Below, piece after piece: positions 14,965 through 39,489 of a DNA stretch of 41,227 nt. The stretch spans positions 1 to 41,227 of the IMG/VR virus record IMGVR_UViG_3300020042_011576; one strand, given 5' to 3'. The first letter of the stretch is position 1, and every line of letters begins with the position of its first letter. A program made the position numbers and the translations under genes. The stretch is from a virus (lineage: Duplodnaviria > Caudoviricetes). Below the pieces are notes generated by a model that saw nothing but the letters and a program-made list of their open reading frames with translations, was not told the DNA's origin and ran no database searches.

Positions 14965-16683
14965 TTATGCAGGGAATTGAGCTCCAGTTGGTTGTAATAT
15001 AAAGTCTAGAGATATAAATTCTGCTGTACGAGTTGGTTGGATATAAATTTGTCCTACTAACTGGTTTTGATCAATTACTGCTGGTCCATTGTTTGAATCA
15101 TCCATTACTACTCTATAAGCATATAATCCTTGTTTTTGTTGGATTGCTTCTAAGTATGGATTAACTCTAGCTATAAATGAATTTCTTGTTGCAATTGTAT
15201 TTTGTTCAAATACTACTGTATCTGCAATTTGACGGATATATGATTTTAATTCAATCATCAAACGACGTACATTTACACGATCTAAAGCAGATTGAGCTTT
15301 TTGCAATGTTTTTTGTCCGTATACTACAACACCTTGTTTAGGTAATGTTGCAATTGGATTGATATTATTTGCATATAATGTATCACGATTACCTTGTGTC
15401 AATTTCAATTCAACTTGAAGAACTGTGCTTAATCCACCTCGGTTTATACCTGCGGGTGCAAACCATGGAGCTGATACTTTATCATTGAAAGCATATACAC
15501 CTGGTATTACTGTTGAAGCTGGTACCCAAACATGTTTTCCTGTTGCTGGGTCAATGATACGAACCCAAGGCCAATATGTTGCAGCGTATGAAGTATTTTT
15601 TGTTTGTGCTTGGGTTAATGCTTGTCCAATTGAACTACCATATATTCCTAAATCCATTACAAACATATTATCACCTCTATTAATTGTATTAGAAACAATA
15701 TTATTAACTTGTGCTGGGTGGGAATCATTTAATAATCCAGGGGTAAATAGTATATTAAATTGATATGCTTCAGGATTTCCTAAAAGGGCAATCATGTTAT
15801 TATAATCTGTAGCTACTAATCCTTGGGTATTTAGACCAATTTCATTATATAATTTAATCGAACCACTTACGTTTCCAATAGCACCACCAAAACATCCATC
15901 TAATGAACCACTTCCTGTAGCTGGGAGAGAAGCTGTATAAGCATTTACAGCAACACCATTATTATCTAAATAATTTGGGGTAAGGAAATTAACTGTTCTA
16001 ACACGTACATATTTTGAATTATTTGGATAACTTCCAGAAATATTCATTTGATTGTTAACGCTGTCGTAACTTAATTTTTGATCACCAATTACTAAAGAAA
16101 TAAAACGTGATGAGTTTGGATCTAATGATACATTATTCCAAGCTTCTAAAACTGTTGGGTTGTCTGTTGTATCATCTCCTCTTCTAATTAATACATTAAA
16201 TGTACCTGAACCTGAGTTTGTTTGAGTAACTTGCCATCTAACATTATTTTTAGAACCAGAAATTAAAGAACCTGAAGCTCCTGATCCTGAGTTATTCATT
16301 ATAATTCCTTCAGAAATTGTTTCTAGAACAAAAGGTGATAAACCTGATGTAGGTCCAGCTGATGCTGTAGGCATATAACTGCTGGTTGCTGAGGTGTAAG
16401 ATCCACTTGCTACTCTAGCTACCAATAATGAAGTTCCTCCATAATTGAAATAGTTATAAGCTGCAATTGAAGTAAGGTATGAATATGAGTTACCACCACT
16501 AATAAAAGTGTCTCCAAACATTGTTTGGAAATCGGAATATGAAGTAACTAATGTAGGTTTTTCATAAGGACCTTTAACTGTTGGGCCTATAATAGCAGCA
16601 CCCGCTTGAACAGGTAATCCTGTCAAATATGTGTTGTCTATTTCACTAATTGCTACTCCAGGAGAAGATGTAAAATTTGCCAT
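14965..16683 (-). CDS. gp18: tail sheath protein (paralog 2)
   Basis: SPGV..SEID, AAIIGPTVKGP, YAATYWPW, PWFAPAGINRG, INPIA, GQKTL, DRVNVRRL, FEQN, QPTRTAEFI. Confidence 0.95.
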   Translation of the reverse strand: MANFTSSPGVAISEIDNTYLTGLPVQAGAAIIGPTVKGPYEKPTLVTSYSDFQTMFGDTFISGGNSYSYLTSIAAYNYFNYGGTSLLVARVASGSYTSATSSYMPTASAGPTSGLSPFVLETISEGIIMNNSGSGASGSLISGSKNNVRWQVTQTNSGSGTFNVLIRRGDDTTDNPTVLEAWNNVSLDPNSSRFISLVIGDQKLSYDSVNNQMNISGSYPNNSKYVRVRTVNFLTPNYLDNNGVAVNAYTASLPATGSGSLDGCFGGAIGNVSGSIKLYNEIGLNTQGLVATDYNNMIALLGNPEAYQFNILFTPGLLNDSHPAQVNNIVSNTINRGDNMFVMDLGIYGSSIGQALTQAQTKNTSYAATYWPWVRIIDPATGKHVWVPASTVIPGVYAFNDKVSAPWFAPAGINRGGLSTVLQVELKLTQGNRDTLYANNINPIATLPKQGVVVYGQKTLQKAQSALDRVNVRRLMIELKSYIRQIADTVVFEQNTIATRNSFIARVNPYLEAIQQKQGLYAYRVVMDDSNNGPAVIDQNQLVGQIYIQPTRTAEFISLDFILQPTGAQFPA

Positions 16684-16695
16684 TTTATATTTTTA

Positions 16696-16705
16696 TTATA
16701 AATAT
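16696..16705 (-). promoter_or_regulatory. putative late promoter motif ATATTTATAA
   Basis: 12 nt upstream of the sheath 2 ATG. Confidence 0.6.
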
Positions 16706-16729
16706 TGATATTTTTTTTAAAATATATTA

Positions 16730-18760
16730 TTAAGCAGGAAATGTTGCACCTGTAGGTAATATATTAAAGTCTAGTAAAATAAATTCTGCTGTTTTGGTTG
16801 GTTGTAAGAAAATTTGTCCTACTAATTGGTTATTATCTACCACGTTTGGTGGATTATTTGACTCATCCATTACAACTTTAAATGCTGTTAAACCTTGTTG
16901 TTGTTGAACAGAAGCTAAATATGGATTAATAACAGATAAGAAATTATTTCTGGTAACAGTATCATTTTGTTCAAATACAAATGTATCAGCAATTTGAGAT
17001 ATATAAGATTTTAATTCAATCAATAAACGTCTTACGTTAATACGATCTAAAGCACTTTTTTTCTTAGCTAATGTTTTTTGTCCAAATACTACTACACCAT
17101 TTGTTGGGTATGTAGCAATTGGATTAATATTTGCTTGATATAATGTATCTCTATTACCTTGAGTTAAAACACGTTCTGCTTGAATAGTAGTAGTTAAAAC
17201 ACCTCTATTTATACCAGCAGGTGCAAACCATGGAGCAGCAACATTATCATTAAATGCATATACTCCAGGAATCATTGTGGAAGCAGGTACCCAAACTTGA
17301 TTAGCTGTTGTTGGATCAATTGTTCTTGCCCAAGGCCAATATGTTGCAGCATATGATGTATCATATCCTGCTGTATTAGTTAATACTGATCCAATTTGGG
17401 AATTATATTTTGATGAATCAAATATTACCATTGCATCCCCTCTATCTTGAACAATAGAATTCATTAAACTAATAGCACCTGCAGATGTTGATCCTATATC
17501 AGACATCAATCCAGGGGCTGTTAATAAATTATATTTAAAAGCATCTTTATTTGATAGTAAAGAAATAGATTCTGTATAGTGAGCGGCGGATAAGCCTTGG
17601 ATATTAGTATCTGATATAATAGCTTCATAATAAGCACCCGCAATACCTGTTGGGATATTTTTTCCAGTTGCCGATCCAAATGAACCACTTGAATTATAAG
17701 GGATTGAACCGGTAAATTGTGGTTTTGGGTTTCCTACATTATCAAAGTAATTTGGAGTTGTTTGGTTAACCGTTTTAACACGAATATATGATGAATTGTT
17801 TGGATAACTTCCAGATAATTGAATGTAATATTCACCATTATCAACTTCTACATTTTCAATTTGATTACCAATTACTTTTTCAATATAATTTGAAGAATAT
17901 GGATCTAAAGATAATGGGCCCCAATTTTCTACTACTGATGGATTGATTGATGAATCATTACCTTGACGAACTAATAGGTAAAAAGTACCATTTGTTAGGT
18001 CTGAGTTAGTTATTTGCCATCTAAAGTTATCTGCTGATCCACTTAATAATGTATTGTAATTGCCTGTTGGGCCTGTACTATTCATTATTTCTCCTTTAGA
18101 AATAGTTTCTAAAATAAAAGCTTCGGTGTTTGTACCACCAGTATAATATACAATAGTACTTCCAGAAACATAATATGATAAATTTCCAGCTAAACCATTT
18201 GAATTAGTAGAAGTTACAACCATGTTAGGAGTAGAAAATGAAGCACTACTGTTAATGGTGAGGTTTGTATAAAAGTTAGTTGGGTTGGAAGGAATTATGT
18301 TTGAAGATGTCGCATTATTAAATACATTTTGAACTGATGATCCTGAAAGGATTACATTTATTCCATTAAATGATGCTGTATAAGCAACAGTTACAGCACT
18401 TGTTAAATCAAGAACTGCAGATGCTGATGTAGCAGCAGTTGATGTTGGGATTAAGGAGGAAGTAGCAGGTGAAAATGTACCACTTACTACTCTAGTTACT
18501 AATAATGAAGTTCCTCCATTATTAAAATAGTTATAGGCTGAGATTGAGGTAAAATAAGTGTATGTATTACTTCCACTAAGGAAAGTAGCACCAAATTTAT
18601 TTAAATAGTCTGAATATGTTGTGACTATTGTAGGGATACCTACCTTACCTTTTACTGTTGGTCCTATTATAGCAGCGCCTGCTTGTGTAGGTTGTTGAGT
18701 TACAAATGATTGATTGTTCTCTATTGCTAATACACCGGGTGATACAATTGTTTCTGGCAT
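16730..18760 (-). CDS. gp18: tail sheath protein (paralog 1)
   Basis: Same sheath motifs as paralog 2 (SPGV, PWFAPAGINRG, DRINVRRL, QPTKTAEFI), with a longer N-terminal insertion. Confidence 0.95.
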   Translation of the reverse strand: MPETIVSPGVLAIENNQSFVTQQPTQAGAAIIGPTVKGKVGIPTIVTTYSDYLNKFGATFLSGSNTYTYFTSISAYNYFNNGGTSLLVTRVVSGTFSPATSSLIPTSTAATSASAVLDLTSAVTVAYTASFNGINVILSGSSVQNVFNNATSSNIIPSNPTNFYTNLTINSSASFSTPNMVVTSTNSNGLAGNLSYYVSGSTIVYYTGGTNTEAFILETISKGEIMNSTGPTGNYNTLLSGSADNFRWQITNSDLTNGTFYLLVRQGNDSSINPSVVENWGPLSLDPYSSNYIEKVIGNQIENVEVDNGEYYIQLSGSYPNNSSYIRVKTVNQTTPNYFDNVGNPKPQFTGSIPYNSSGSFGSATGKNIPTGIAGAYYEAIISDTNIQGLSAAHYTESISLLSNKDAFKYNLLTAPGLMSDIGSTSAGAISLMNSIVQDRGDAMVIFDSSKYNSQIGSVLTNTAGYDTSYAATYWPWARTIDPTTANQVWVPASTMIPGVYAFNDNVAAPWFAPAGINRGVLTTTIQAERVLTQGNRDTLYQANINPIATYPTNGVVVFGQKTLAKKKSALDRINVRRLLIELKSYISQIADTFVFEQNDTVTRNNFLSVINPYLASVQQQQGLTAFKVVMDESNNPPNVVDNNQLVGQIFLQPTKTAEFILLDFNILPTGATFPA

Positions 18761-30738: not shown

Positions 30739-32871
30739 TTATTCTTTATCAAATTCTGTTATCAATCTATCAGTATCTTTACGTTCTGCAAACACAGCAT
30801 AAAAACAATCTAATTTTTTATTTTTAGAACCAATAGTAATTATAGTATCTGTTATACCTTGTACCCAAAGTTCTTGATGTTTTCCAATTGGTGTTAAAGC
30901 AACTGTAATTGTATCTTCATGAACTAAAGCATGCCAATAATCTGGGAGTAGAATAGTATTAATGTCCGTAAGTCTACCACGAAGATATACTGAATGTTCA
31001 GGTCCCTCAAGTACACCATATTGTAGTTTTTTACCTTCTTTAGTTGGGTGATCAATGATAAAGGACTTAACAGTAGCACGAATAGTTCCTATTACATTCA
31101 ATGTAGATCCATCAAATGTCATATTTGATTCACCATTAAATGGTGTTGTACCATTACCTGTAGCAGTAACTACATAGTTGTCTACGTTATTTGTAATAGC
31201 AGTTGCTGCACTTGTGCCTTGTGCACCTGTTGTTCCTTGAGTTCCAGTAGTACCTTGTGTTCCAGTAGCACCTTGTGTACCTGTTGTGCCTTGTGTACCT
31301 GTTGTTCCTACAGCACCTTGTGTACCTGTTGTGCCTTGTGCACCTGTTGTTCCAGTTGTACCTTGAGAACCTGTAGCACCCACTGTTCCTTGTGTTCCAG
31401 TTGTTCCTTGAGCTCCTGTTGTACCAACAGTTCCTTGCACTCCAGTAGCACCTTGTGAACCAGTTGCACCAACAGTTCCTTGTGTTCCAGTCGTACCTTG
31501 AGATCCTGTTGCACCTACTGTACCTTGTGTACCAGTAGTTCCTTGAGTTCCCGTTGCACCTTGTGTACCTGTTGTTCCTTGAGCTCCTTTATCACCGGTA
31601 GTTACAAAAGATACTATAATATCTTCTAAGTTAGTGAATGGAGATGCAGCTGAAAATGCTTGGTTTGTGATTGTTAATGTCCACCAACCTGTATTGTTTG
31701 TTAATGCTGAAATTTGGAATAATAAGAATTGGGTTGCATCTGTTCTGTTTGCAATTCGTACATATCCTTTTATGGCTGATGATACAGCATTAATTGTATT
31801 TAAGAATGAGTCTATATTAGCGGATTGATCCGTAGTTGAATCAATATACATCGCAGTAGCGGTGTTTTCCGTCGCGTTATTTAATCGTACTTTACCAGTA
31901 CCAGGATCTGATGCTGCTGTTGAGGTATCGTAGGTGTAATCGAATGTTGCACCACCAAATGAACCATCATTTCCTTGTGTTCCAGTAATACCTTGTGCAC
32001 CAGTTGTTCCTTGAGTACCAGTAGTTCCTTGTGTTCCTACTGTACCTTGTGTACCAACAACACCCTGTGTTCCAGTTGTTCCTTGTGTACCTACAGTTCC
32101 TTGTGATCCAGTTACACCTTGTGTCCCTTGTACTCCAGTAGTACCTTGCGCTCCAGTAGTACCAACGGTACCTTGTGTTCCAGTTGTTCCTTGAGAACCA
32201 GTAGCTCCATTTACACCTTGTATACCTTGTGTTCCAGTAGTACCTTGTGATCCCGTTGTACCTATAGTACCTTGTGTACCTATTGTACCTTGTGTTCCAG
32301 TTGCGCCTTGTACTCCTGTAGTTCCTTGTGCACCAGTAACACCTTGTGAACCAGTAGCTCCTTGTGACCCTGTTGCACCGGTTGTACCTTGTGCTCCAGT
32401 TGTTCCAACTGTTCCTTGTGATCCAGTTGCGCCTTGTGTTCCAGTTGCGCCTTGTGTTCCAGTTGTACCTTGTGCACCTGTTGTTCCAGTTGTACCTTGG
32501 GTTCCTGTTATTCCTTGTGCTCCAGTAGCACCTTGTGTTCCAGTTATACCTTGTGCACCTATGGTTCCTTGAGCTCCAGTTGCGCCTTGTGTTCCTACTG
32601 TACCTTGTGCGCCAGTTGCGCCTTGAGTACCAGTTGTACCTTGTGTACCTGTAGTACCTTGTGTACCTGTAGCACCTTGTGTACCTTGTAAACTTAAATT
32701 ATTTCTATATCTTAAATCACCATCTGCTGTTAATACAACAATATTGGTTTCTGTTGTTCCTAAAGGGACTGAAGTAAGAAGGGCTGTAGAGCCCGTAATA
32801 CTAGTTGTTACATTTAAAGAGTTTAAGGCTGCATTAGAGCCCGATACTATGACTTTTTTCCAGTTTGGCAT
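30739..32871 (-). CDS. collagen-like tail fibre protein with C-terminal KSF.IDHP..LEGPE domain
   Basis: 710 aa; two Gly-X-Y blocks separated by a globular domain; C-terminal [31 protein letters not shown]. Confidence 0.8.
31215..31590 (-). repeat. collagen-like 9/18-bp coding repeats, block 2
   Basis: [12 protein letters not shown] triplets. Confidence 0.85.
31970..32690 (-). repeat. collagen-like 9/18-bp coding repeats, block 1
   Basis: About 80 consecutive Gly-X-Y triplets with no Pro. Confidence 0.85.
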
Positions 32872-32880
32872 TTATATGTT

Positions 32881-32937
32881 TATTACGGTTGGTTATACAG
32901 AATATGCTGTATCCACTTCCCTTTAGGGCCTATAATA
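32881..32937 (-). ncRNA. candidate structured cis-regulatory RNA (three-way junction) in the 5' leader of the collagen fibre gene
   Basis: P1 TATTAT(A)GG/CCGTAATA; P2 CCC-TAAA-GGG; P3 TGG+ATACAG/CTGTAT+(AA)CCA. Lies between a late motif (32941-32950) and the ATG (32871). Confidence 0.5.
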
Positions 32938-32940
32938 CGG

Positions 32941-32950
32941 TAATAAATAT
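32941..32950 (-). promoter_or_regulatory. putative late promoter motif variant ATATTTATTA
   Basis: Immediately upstream of the structured leader. Confidence 0.55.
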
Positions 32951-32951
32951 A

Positions 32952-33191
32952 TTACTGTTTTTTCCTGGTTAAAGTTTTAGTTTCTTCATGTTGGATCATT
33001 TGTTGAAGTCCCAAAGTTTTGGCTTCTTCTTCAGCTTTTATCATTTGAACAATTTCTTCAAGTTCTTGTTCTAATTTCATTTGGATGTGAGCACAAAATT
33101 TAGCATCTTTTCCTTGGATAGGAATAGTCTCTAGTGCTTGACGTAGAAAATTTAATTCTGCGTGTGAAAAATCAATTGAAAATAAATTCAT
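32952..33191 (-). CDS. small helical protein (possible fibre chaperone)
   Basis: 79 aa; FS..EL.FL...L....I.G.D pattern shared with the 66-aa neighbour. Confidence 0.7.
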   Translation of the reverse strand: MNLFSIDFSHAELNFLRQALETIPIQGKDAKFCAHIQMKLEQELEEIVQMIKAEEEAKTLGLQQMIQHEETKTLTRKKQ

Positions 33192-33197
33192 ATATTA

Positions 33198-33398
33198 TTA
33201 TTTAGTCTGTTCTATGTATTGGCTTTGTAGCTTAACGACTAAATTATATAAAGGTTCTATATCTTCTCCAAGGAAGTTTGTTCTTTTTATCATAGAAAGT
33301 AAAACTTCTATTTCTTGGGTTGATAATTGATCTAAAGTTAATTCTTTCAGATGTTGTTGGGGTTGTGTTGGTGGTTTAATTCTGTCTAGAATACTCAT
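33198..33398 (-). CDS. small helical protein (possible fibre chaperone)
   Basis: 66 aa; LSTQEIEVLLSMIKRTNFLGED...LVVKLQ. Confidence 0.7.
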   Translation of the reverse strand: MSILDRIKPPTQPQQHLKELTLDQLSTQEIEVLLSMIKRTNFLGEDIEPLYNLVVKLQSQYIEQTK

Positions 33399-33406
33399 AA
33401 CATTGA

Positions 33407-33442
33407 TTTTAAAAATTAGGGGTAGGATTTTACACCTACCCC
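33407..33442 (-). terminator. hairpin, probable intrinsic terminator
   Basis: Minus strand GGGGTAGG-TGTAAAAT-CCTACCCC (33442-33419) followed by TAATTTTT. Confidence 0.65.
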
Positions 33443-33448
33443 ATTATA

Positions 33449-34681
33449 TTAAGCATAAATATAAATATCTCCTGTATCTGTTTTAACATGGATATTACCA
33501 AATCCATTTGAAGCACCTCCATATAATGGAGCAGCTGATGGAACTGCTGTACTTACTTCAGTTGTAGTAATAAATGCTGCCGGTGTGAATGAAGCTCCAT
33601 TAGCTGTAAAACTTGAGGTAAATGCCCAACGATTAGTAGCACTATCATATCCATATAATTCACCTACATTTTGAGTACCTTGTTGAATTACGATACCACC
33701 ATCTCCTGCTGTGTTTGATCCAGAAGCAAATAATACAAATCTATCTGCTACTTCTAAGTTGGTTGTTTGTTGAAAAGATGCTGTACCTTGTACTGTTAAG
33801 TTACCTGTAATTACTTCATTTCCTGTTACTGTTAATGTAGTACCATCAAATGTTAAATTTCCTTCACCATTAATTGTACCACCACCAGTTGCTGTTAATA
33901 CTCTATTATCAGCATTGTTGGTGATTGCAGGAGTAATGTTAGATGCAGTTGTTGCTGTCCCAGTTAAATTACCTACAAAAGTAGTAGAAGTAACTGAAGT
34001 AAGTCCTGTAATAGTAGTTGCTAGTGTTAAACTATCTGTAGATTCAACTGCTAAATTAGTACCAGCTAAGTCAGTTAATAAATCACCATAAGTAATATAT
34101 TGGTTAGTACTTTGACTAATAAAGAATTTATCTGTACTTGTAATATTATTTACTTGTGATGTTGGGAAAATAGCGGTTGCAGTTACACCCGTTAATGCAG
34201 CACCATTACCTGAAAATGATCCTGTAAATGATCCAGTTAATGCTGAACTAGCTCCACTTAACTGTAATGAAGTAGTACCTGTAATTGCAGTACCATTATC
34301 TGTTAAAGATGAGTTAGCAAATGCATTACCTGTCCATTTTGTAATATTATTAGTACTTAAAGCTGAAGCTCCTGAAACTGCTACTGTCGCAGTTGAAGCA
34401 CCATCATAAGTAAATGCTGTAATACCAGTACCTTGTGTTAAATCGGGTAAGTTAGTGGTACCAACAAAATTACCTTGGAATGAACCACTAAATGAACCAG
34501 AATGAACTAATCCTGTAGCATTTGTTGTTGCTACGATATTACCAGTACCATTAATTGCTGTTGTAGATAAATTGGAAGTACCACCACCAATTACTACTTG
34601 TCCTGATGTAAGATTGTCTACTTGTAATGCTGCTAAATTAGCTGTACTACCGGAGACTATTACTTTTTTCCAAGTTGCCAT
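33449..34681 (-). CDS. Thr/Ser/Gly-rich tail fibre/appendage protein
   Basis: 410 aa; N-terminus [12 protein letters not shown] shared with the 710-aa fibre; GNLTVQGT..TTNLEVADRF fibre-type motif. Confidence 0.75.
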   Translation of the reverse strand: MATWKKVIVSGSTANLAALQVDNLTSGQVVIGGGTSNLSTTAINGTGNIVATTNATGLVHSGSFSGSFQGNFVGTTNLPDLTQGTGITAFTYDGASTATVAVSGASALSTNNITKWTGNAFANSSLTDNGTAITGTTSLQLSGASSALTGSFTGSFSGNGAALTGVTATAIFPTSQVNNITSTDKFFISQSTNQYITYGDLLTDLAGTNLAVESTDSLTLATTITGLTSVTSTTFVGNLTGTATTASNITPAITNNADNRVLTATGGGTINGEGNLTFDGTTLTVTGNEVITGNLTVQGTASFQQTTNLEVADRFVLFASGSNTAGDGGIVIQQGTQNVGELYGYDSATNRWAFTSSFTANGASFTPAAFITTTEVSTAVPSAAPLYGGASNGFGNIHVKTDTGDIYIYA

Positions 34682-35059: not shown

Positions 35060-35203
35060 TTACTTCCCTTGTGCTACGTATGCTTTTACGTAATTTTTAC
35101 TATTTTTGCTTTTACTTGATTTTGATTTTGCGTGAACACCTGGGTTTTTCTTTTTAGGTTTTCTCACGAATGAAACTACTGATTGTCCTTTTGCTTTTGC
35201 CAT
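35060..35203 (-). CDS. 47-aa highly basic protein, absent from the ORF track
   Basis: Translated by hand: MAKAKGQSVVSFVRKPKKKNPGVHAKSKSSKSKNSKNYVKAYVAQGK*. It fills the gap exactly, its stop is 1 nt before the next ATG, and the motif ATATTTATGA lies just upstream. Confidence 0.8.
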   Translation of the reverse strand: MAKAKGQSVVSFVRKPKKKNPGVHAKSKSSKSKNSKNYVKAYVAQGK

Positions 35204-39404: not shown

Positions 39405-39418
39405 ATAACTATATTTGA

Positions 39419-39428
39419 TAATAAATAT
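39419..39428 (-). promoter_or_regulatory. putative late promoter motif variant ATATTTATTA upstream of phoH
   Basis: 14 nt upstream of the ATG, just after the capsid terminator. Confidence 0.55.
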
Positions 39429-39439
39429 TGGGGGAAAAC

Positions 39440-39465
39440 TAAAAAAGCCGGACTTTCGTCCGGCT
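39440..39465 (-). terminator. intrinsic terminator after the major capsid gene
   Basis: Minus strand AGCCGGAC-GAAA-GTCCGGCT followed by TTTTT. Confidence 0.9.
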
Positions 39466-39489
39466 CTTCATATTAGGTTTTATCTAATA

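Follow-up and report, generated by a model that had tools for sequence, protein, structure and literature searches.

A covarying three-way-junction RNA in the leader of a collagen-repeat fibre gene of T4-like phages is a candidate translational OFF switch

The stretch of DNA analysed here (IMG/VR record IMGVR_UViG_3300020042_011576, positions 1 to 41,227; 41,227 nucleotides, hereafter the window) comes from a T4-like phage, and the 41-kb fragment has a completeness of about 25%. The major capsid protein most similar to its own is that of Flavobacterium phage immuto (56% identity), followed by those of Microcystis phage Mel-JY01 and then of an uncultured jumbo phage and Rhodothermus phage RM378. 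The gene under study encodes a collagen-repeat fibre protein, the immuto counterpart of which is annotated as 'putative tail fiber-like protein'. Two genes upstream of it lies a paralogue with a 20-nt A-rich leader. Only some 16 N-terminal residues of the fibre protein are conserved, and they are common to the paralogue, which is devoid of the element described below. Gene order and element are the same in the cultured Flavobacterium phage immuto_2-6A. Two small paralogous helical-hairpin proteins are encoded between both WKKVIVSGS fibre genes (32952-33398, minus strand), and relatives have one or two copies. Neither a family nor a fold match was found for these small proteins, their conserved residues are only G and K, and their adjacency to the element is not constant; they may be fibre chaperones.

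The leader of the fibre gene comprises 80 nt from the stop codon of the 79-aa ORF to the ATG of the 710-aa gene and is filled by the sequence considered here, with the core of the element at 32881-32937 of the minus strand (Table 1). A preliminary description of the locus, made from the sequence alone, had noted that the late-promoter-like word lies unusually far from the ATG. This is correct in kind, and the distances had to be revised: the word is 71 nt away, not 69, and for the 12 further copies upstream of window genes the distance to an ATG is 5-23 nt, not 3-21. The intervening sequence is also richer in G+C, as had been stated, namely 37% in the element versus 33.6% in the window; four other late leaders have 12-21%. 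The coding-strand word, (A)TATTTAT(A), corresponds in reverse complement to TATAAATA, the consensus of T4 late promoters. Copies on the minus strand are found, for example, at 39427, 38681, 35216, 34708, 27575, 21121, 18786, 16704, 14947, 12151, 10694 and 8331, and at three ATGs the word ends 5-6 nt before the start codon, implying very short leaders. Of 173 distinct records of the motif, 137 have a TATTTAT-like word no more than 45 nt ahead of the core. Because it mostly lies 11-17 nt before the core GG (108/173), the 5' end of the RNA is probably located a few nucleotides downstream of TATTTAT, just before P1.

Table 1. Genes and parts of the RNA element at the fibre locus, in window positions
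Feature	Positions	Strand	Basis or remark
Regulated gene: 710-aa collagen-repeat fibre, MP[NS]W[KR]K family	30739..32871	-	sequence, ORF
P1 3' strand CC-GUAAUA, covers -17 to -10 including A-13 and A-12	32881..32888	-	sequence
Two-base bulge AA, P3a 3' strand CCA and single junction A	32889..32894	-	aligns with A69-A70-C-C-G73-R74 of c-di-GMP-II, A at the G73 position
P3b hairpin AUACAG-CAUAUU-CUGUAU	32895..32912	-	folding
P3a 5' strand UGG (URG)	32913..32915	-	alignment
Junction strand AAG, nearly invariant	32916..32918	-	alignment
P2 hairpin CCC-UAAA-GGG	32919..32928	-	alignment
Bulged A and P1b 5' strand GG (immuto variant GA/UC)	32929..32931	-	alignment
P1a 5' strand UAUUAU	32932..32937	-	5 pairs, double changes in all
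Late-promoter-like word TATTTAT	32943..32949	-	12 other copies before ATGs; same word upstream of core in relatives
79-aa helical protein, no known family, directly upstream of element	32952..33191	-	
66-aa paralogue of the 79-aa protein, predicted helical hairpin	33198..33398	-	
Paralogous MATWKK gene, same N-terminal motif, short unstructured leader, internal control	33449..34681	-	

The three-way junction of P1, P2 and P3 proposed in the preliminary description is the minimum free energy structure of both 32872-32940 and 32878-32938, and it is also the RNAalifold consensus of 71 homologues. Judged as a single sequence, the fold is no better than chance, with z scores of -0.45 to -1.44 in five of six minus-strand segments and +0.07 in the sixth; an alternative P1 register was favoured in two of the six. 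That the single sequence does not fold better than its shuffles, and that the opposite strand folds slightly better than the minus strand, would fit a chance fold in an A/T-rich spacer or an element acting at the DNA level. The alignment gives a different result. From the 173 distinct records, 71 representatives with less than 86% similarity were chosen and aligned by sequence, and RNAalifold returned P1a, a bulged base, P1b GG/CC, P2, AAG, P3a URG/CYA, a 2-nt bulge, P3b and a single A. In the covariation test, 12 of 17 pairs were changed on both sides (7.1 in shuffles), none of 500 shuffles reached any of the five measures, and the paired cells amounted to 96.2% versus 84.5% in shuffles and 25-48% in slid controls, with the caveat that the descriptor used to collect the records itself favours pairing and prescribes several core columns, that cells are sequences and not events, and that the protein-anchored locus set described below lessens this bias and does not abolish it. 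On the coding strand, G.U and A-U pairs alternate and GNRA loops are seen, indicating that this strand is the RNA. A chance fold does not account for covariation above all 500 shuffles and all slid controls, nor for these strand-specific features; the alignment has already largely refuted that reading, and we regard it as hardly credible.

Several bases are fixed even inside the stems (GG/CC, C-G, AAG, U-A, G-C and G.U), and the lengths of P2 and P3b vary. P2 comprises 8-24 nt in the relatives, with an invariant first C-G pair and common GNRA loops. The middle pair of P3a is G-C in 61 and A-U in 10 of the 71 representatives, and the junction-adjacent U-A pair shows no compensation, its only change being to U.U (2/71). 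The window copy is slightly atypical in that its P3b starts with A-U/U-A (1/173 records) versus G.U/C-G in 138 of 173. As invariant bases are found in stems and junction, something is likely to recognise the RNA, and the fixed stem bases suggest a recognised three-dimensional surface, beyond a merely stable fold.

The reading of the element as functional had been made to depend on conservation upstream of homologous genes, and such conservation was found. Loci were collected by the coding start alone, which yielded 114 distinct leaders, 110 of them with a family-like N-terminus and a leader of at least 100 nt. At least 99 of these 110 MP[NS]W[KR]K leaders pass a strict structural descriptor. 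Among the 11 misses, the core is discernible by eye in six, lies about 105 nt farther upstream in three and is absent from two (L148, L211); on its contig, L148 is followed 1.3 kb downstream by a motif-bearing copy, which puts it at the position of the paralogue. None of 108 distinct MA[TN]WKK paralogue leaders (87 family-like) carries the element. In a first scan with part of the element, which was thus motif-selected, most of the 120 viral matches listed precede an MP[NS]WKK gene; 20 distinct matches among the 120 listed viral loci of the half-pattern scan are without P1/P2 and were treated as chance. A motif-first metagenome scan placed 110 of the 120 matches listed directly before a family gene, the others being four incomplete, two chance-looking and four variant loci. 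A covariance model detected one copy each in the window, in immuto (whole genome) and in five large IMG/VR records, of which four have a completeness of at least 90%, and no copy in RM378, Mel-JY01 and LR756508. Scanning GTDB with the pattern gave six matches, of which three precede family fibre genes in MAG contigs and the other three are apparently due to chance, and the single match in a model scan of 101 genomes is a phage-like contig already among the GTDB matches. The abundance is estimated at about 1,100 IMG/VR stretches with the 3' half, where about a sixth of the listed matches is chance, and at about 2,800 metagenome stretches with the full pattern. In one lake metatranscriptome, contigs of relatives span the leader; such contigs carry no strand, start or level information.

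P1 closes 9 nt before the ATG in the window, as previously stated, and across the records 6-20 unpaired nt (median 10) separate it from the start codon. It covers -12 or -13 in 55 of the 71 representatives, and both positions are A in the window. A-12/A-13 are described to promote initiation in F. johnsoniae reporters (PMC6847099). Furthermore, 47 records contain an SD-like word, and in 25 of them P1 extends over it at least in part. Additional contacts with the start region differ between lineages. The P2 loop pairs over 5-8 bp with UGCCA in 21 of 173 records, the P3 loop pairs over 5-7 bp with AUGCC in 18 of 173, and in two records (L372, L394) the P3 loop pairs over 7 bp just before the AUG. 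Three extended leaders have strands complementary to both sides of P1, and the anti-P1 strand leads to a mutually exclusive fold that is predicted to be 10-13 kcal/mol more stable. Forcing the junction lowered the predicted accessibility of -13..-1 in two of these three leaders (from 0.72 to 0.39 and from 0.58 to 0.44) and left the third unchanged. Each pairing platform is probably one lineage, and where a platform is visible, the predicted pairings indicate that a folded junction mostly means a hidden start. Since the folded RNA is paired with the ribosome site or the start codon in several ways, depending on the lineage, it likely represses translation.

A loop-to-start pseudoknot as a family-wide feature was rejected. 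Such pairing is absent from 134 of 173 records and comprises only 4 bp in the window, where GCAU in P3b (32904-32907) could pair with AUGC at the start codon. For the 71 representatives, loop-start pairing was 9.66 versus 8.92 +/- 0.21 for shuffled loops, a modest excess; there was no cognate specificity, 99 of 300 swaps being as high, and covariation at the Pro2 wobble was weak (5/18 pair). The predicted accessibilities of motif and paralogue leaders also differ little (0.55 vs 0.66 at -17..-10; 0.62 vs 0.59 at -9..+3).

The distance between RNA and start codon is maintained when the first ORF differs, either as a uORF (L514, L583) or as an endonuclease gene (L379, L463, L549). The uORF of L514 and L583 has 17 codons, begins 11 nt after the core and has a stop codon overlapping the fibre AUG; it contains an SD-like AGGAGG for the fibre gene. 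Homing endonuclease genes are located between RNA and fibre gene in L379, L549 and L519 (HNH-like) and in L463 (GIY-YIG-like by eye). The first codons, MPN, are retained in the HNH-like endonuclease genes; in L379 the fibre gene comes next and overlaps the end of the endonuclease gene. In L134, L221, L227 and L553, the leaders are lengthened by about 105-130 nt with extra hairpins, and in L221 GAG replaces the AAG that is invariant elsewhere. Inserts in L005 and L022 had been considered as group I introns and turned out to be leader extensions of about 105 nt.

The earlier proposal of a cis-regulatory RNA acting on translation is thus well supported by near-universal presence before orthologues, strong covariation and start-hiding pairings, and the element may, as suggested, serve to set fibre stoichiometry. 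A search of Rfam 15 with the window and five relatives yielded no match, in agreement with the earlier remark that no known riboswitch or ribozyme fits. The comparative sequence evidence indicates that the element is a real cis-regulatory RNA family that is uncatalogued in Rfam and a member of no tested family. It is probable, on the same evidence, that it is a translational OFF switch, whatever the ligand. As the best explanation we favour, with a probability of roughly 0.35, an OFF switch held shut by a phage late protein, probably the unassembled fibre or a fibre-assembly protein. In this mechanism, transcription would start just before P1, the invariant core would be the putative binding site, and binding would stabilise the weak, A/U-rich P1 over -17..-10 and block initiation, until the free protein would be titrated by virion assembly. 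The case for a protein operator consists of precedent and of one site before one structural gene, with one copy per genome searched. The scaffolding protein of phage P22 reportedly regulates its own synthesis. Gp32 of T4 represses its own translation via a leader pseudoknot, and the gene 32 operator resembles the element in that one structure in a phage leader overlies the initiation region of a single gene, as described in the parts of PMC10690425 that were consulted. In contrast to the gene 32 and P22 operators, the element has a different fold and precedes a virion fibre gene whose product is without a known nucleic-acid-binding domain, and its binder is putative. None of the candidate proteins stands out: the fibre N-terminus is common to the unregulated paralogue, and the small proteins are poorly conserved. 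A resemblance to the c-di-GMP-II riboswitch also counts against a protein and toward a small molecule; on balance, a phage protein is slightly ahead of c-di-AMP as the candidate ligand.

This resemblance concerns the GG/CC top of P1, a URG/CYR helix, a 2-nt, mostly AA bulge, an RC/GY helix and one purine before the 3' strand of P1 (RF01786; PDB 3Q3Z according to the available part of PMC13715770). The P4/P1 strands of that class, UGGRY ... GY-AA-CC-G-R-CC with the 2-nt bulge, are recognisable, and the motif was compared with 16 c-di-GMP-II matches above the cut-off from 121 genomes of one class. Between the 5' UGGRY and 3' GYAACCGRCC of c-di-GMP-II and the URGRC and GUWWCYAACC of the motif, 12 of 15 columns agree in the majority base, although several motif columns are fixed by the search descriptor; in two further columns the base of the motif is found in 6 and 2 of the 16 matches. 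At the column of G73, c-di-GMP-II has G in 15 of 16 matches and never A, and the motif has A in 171 of 173 records, the residue numbers having been mapped onto the motif columns by this analysis and not by the cited paper. A69, A70 and G73 contact the ligand in the c-di-GMP-II aptamer, and a related pocket binds cGAMP isomers (PMC13715770, as far as the available text goes). A version of the motif with G at this position preceded a family gene in none of 90 viral matches. In the order to which a Flavobacteriales MAG belongs, a DAC domain is present in 45 of 61 genomes and a GGDEF domain in 0 of 61, and therefore c-di-AMP is the natural candidate. The available part of PMC10085705 does not mention c-di-GMP. 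The element could thus be a phage-specific riboswitch with a rewired c-di-GMP-II-type pocket, in which the change of G73 to A reads an adenine-containing cyclic dinucleotide, likeliest host c-di-AMP, and shuts off fibre translation according to the state of the host; multiple expression platforms would suit a riboswitch equally well. However, the topology differs, with a local hairpin instead of a P4 pseudoknot formed from the P3 loop with its P2-P3 internal loop, no P3 or kink-turn-like loop and no linker A after the GG, between P1 and P2. RF01786 gave no match even at E<=10, let alone at the gathering score, and with A at G73 membership of c-di-GMP-II was rejected. The bulge is AA in only 109 of 173 records, and the invariant AAG could fill the pocket in cis, leaving no room for a ligand. 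Unlike c-di-GMP-II, moreover, the motif occurs in phage contexts only and before a structural gene, it was not found in host chromosomes (GTDB scan; model scan of 101 genomes), and five phage genomes encode neither cyclase. We therefore consider the rewired pocket a serious and yet unlikely alternative, and we have similar doubts, by no means smaller, about a phage-confined class in which the pseudoknot has become a hairpin, G73 has become A, and sensing of host c-di-AMP decides whether the variable adhesion fibre is made.

Three further explanations were weighed. The fold might itself set the level of initiation as a ligand-free attenuator or coupling element, which ribosomes from the upstream ORF would melt in operonic copies. 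The lineage with P2-loop pairing is consistent with this, as a stop-like triplet abuts P1 in 17 of its 21 records (frame confirmed in L381, L385 and L388) and 20 of 21 lack the promoter word, and the uORF and endonuclease variants show coupling in use. Yet a plain hairpin would suffice for attenuation, the base-specific invariance and the anti-P1 alternative fold would stay unexplained, and 137 of 173 records have a promoter-like word of their own, so that we judge this explanation unlikely too. An action on the RNA rather than on initiation, be it by stabilising the 5' end, as a site of processing or self-cleavage, or as a signal at the level of transcription, would be in accord with the position at the inferred 5' end of a late operon and with the compact invariant core; it is improbable in view of the tight start-codon spacing and of the several lineages that pair with the start. 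A known self-cleaving ribozyme or an intrinsic terminator in particular was rejected, because there was neither a ribozyme or terminator match in Rfam nor a U tract following the hairpin. More improbable still is a riboswitch for another small ligand (e.g. an amino acid or ion) of the kind of the glutamine-I three-way junction. The change of the junction-adjacent U-A pair to nothing except U.U would suit a loop-E-like non-canonical pair, a reading that rests on isostericity. Glutamine-I (glnA RNA) is likewise a three-way junction of about 60 nt and has the string GGAAGUA in common with the element (PMC5393176, PMC6698751, in the portions available). In the element, however, the G bases preceding AAG form covarying pairs in P2, and no Rfam match was obtained. 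Membership was rejected, as loop E (GAAGUAA/UGAAGC) with its partner strand GAAG and the C1:G59, G22 and C58 contacts given in the available portions of PMC6698751 and PMC5393176 are missing, and the element has URG/CYA pairs. The downstream gene is also unrelated to nitrogen metabolism, which differs from glutamine-I. By eye, the element bears a poor resemblance to SRP helix 8 and to the S8/S15 rRNA sites.

The motif was not found in the literature searched. Fremin et al. 2023 screened IMG/VR for structured RNAs, and their GP20-a, GP20-b and other candidate viral RNAs are likewise covarying cis-regulatory candidates at most 25 nt from phage genes, whereas the three entries before 'Collagen' genes in the consulted material of that study stem from host-associated gut sets and not from aquatic ones (PMC10690425). 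Sequence words of the element do not occur in four supplements of PMC10690425, whose tables, in the material consulted, hold no sequences; the alignments lay outside this search, and an unnamed entry there is possible. The element represents a compact covarying RNA family that is widespread in aquatic phages and tied to one hypervariable virion fibre gene. If it is a protein operator, fibre control would be coupled to assembly, and one core would have been reused on several independently evolved start-codon blocks. In the event of c-di-AMP binding, the element would be a riboswitch confined to phages and a known aptamer rewired by nature, and host physiology would set the surface of the progeny particles. 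A cultured phage-host pair, immuto_2-6A on Flavobacterium sp. LMO8, carries the element, and both readings are testable with a 60-nt RNA.

Some further features of the window and its relatives were observed. A very basic 47-aa ORF with its own late word (35060-35203, minus strand) has homologues in immuto and in one of four large relatives; it had no PHROG match and is a possible nucleic-acid binder. Mel-JY01, deposited as a Microcystis phage and free of the motif, encodes ribosomal protein bS21 beside its head genes (L492:17188-17415), an arrangement that has been described for phages of the Bacteroidetes type. On the minus strand, 14965-18760 is occupied by two tandem genes whose N-termini are similar and which have a late word each; they are probably tail-sheath-like. 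Terminator-like, G+C-rich hairpins followed by U-rich runs are present on the minus strand at 33399-33448, after the MATWKK gene, and at 39405-39489, after the capsid gene.
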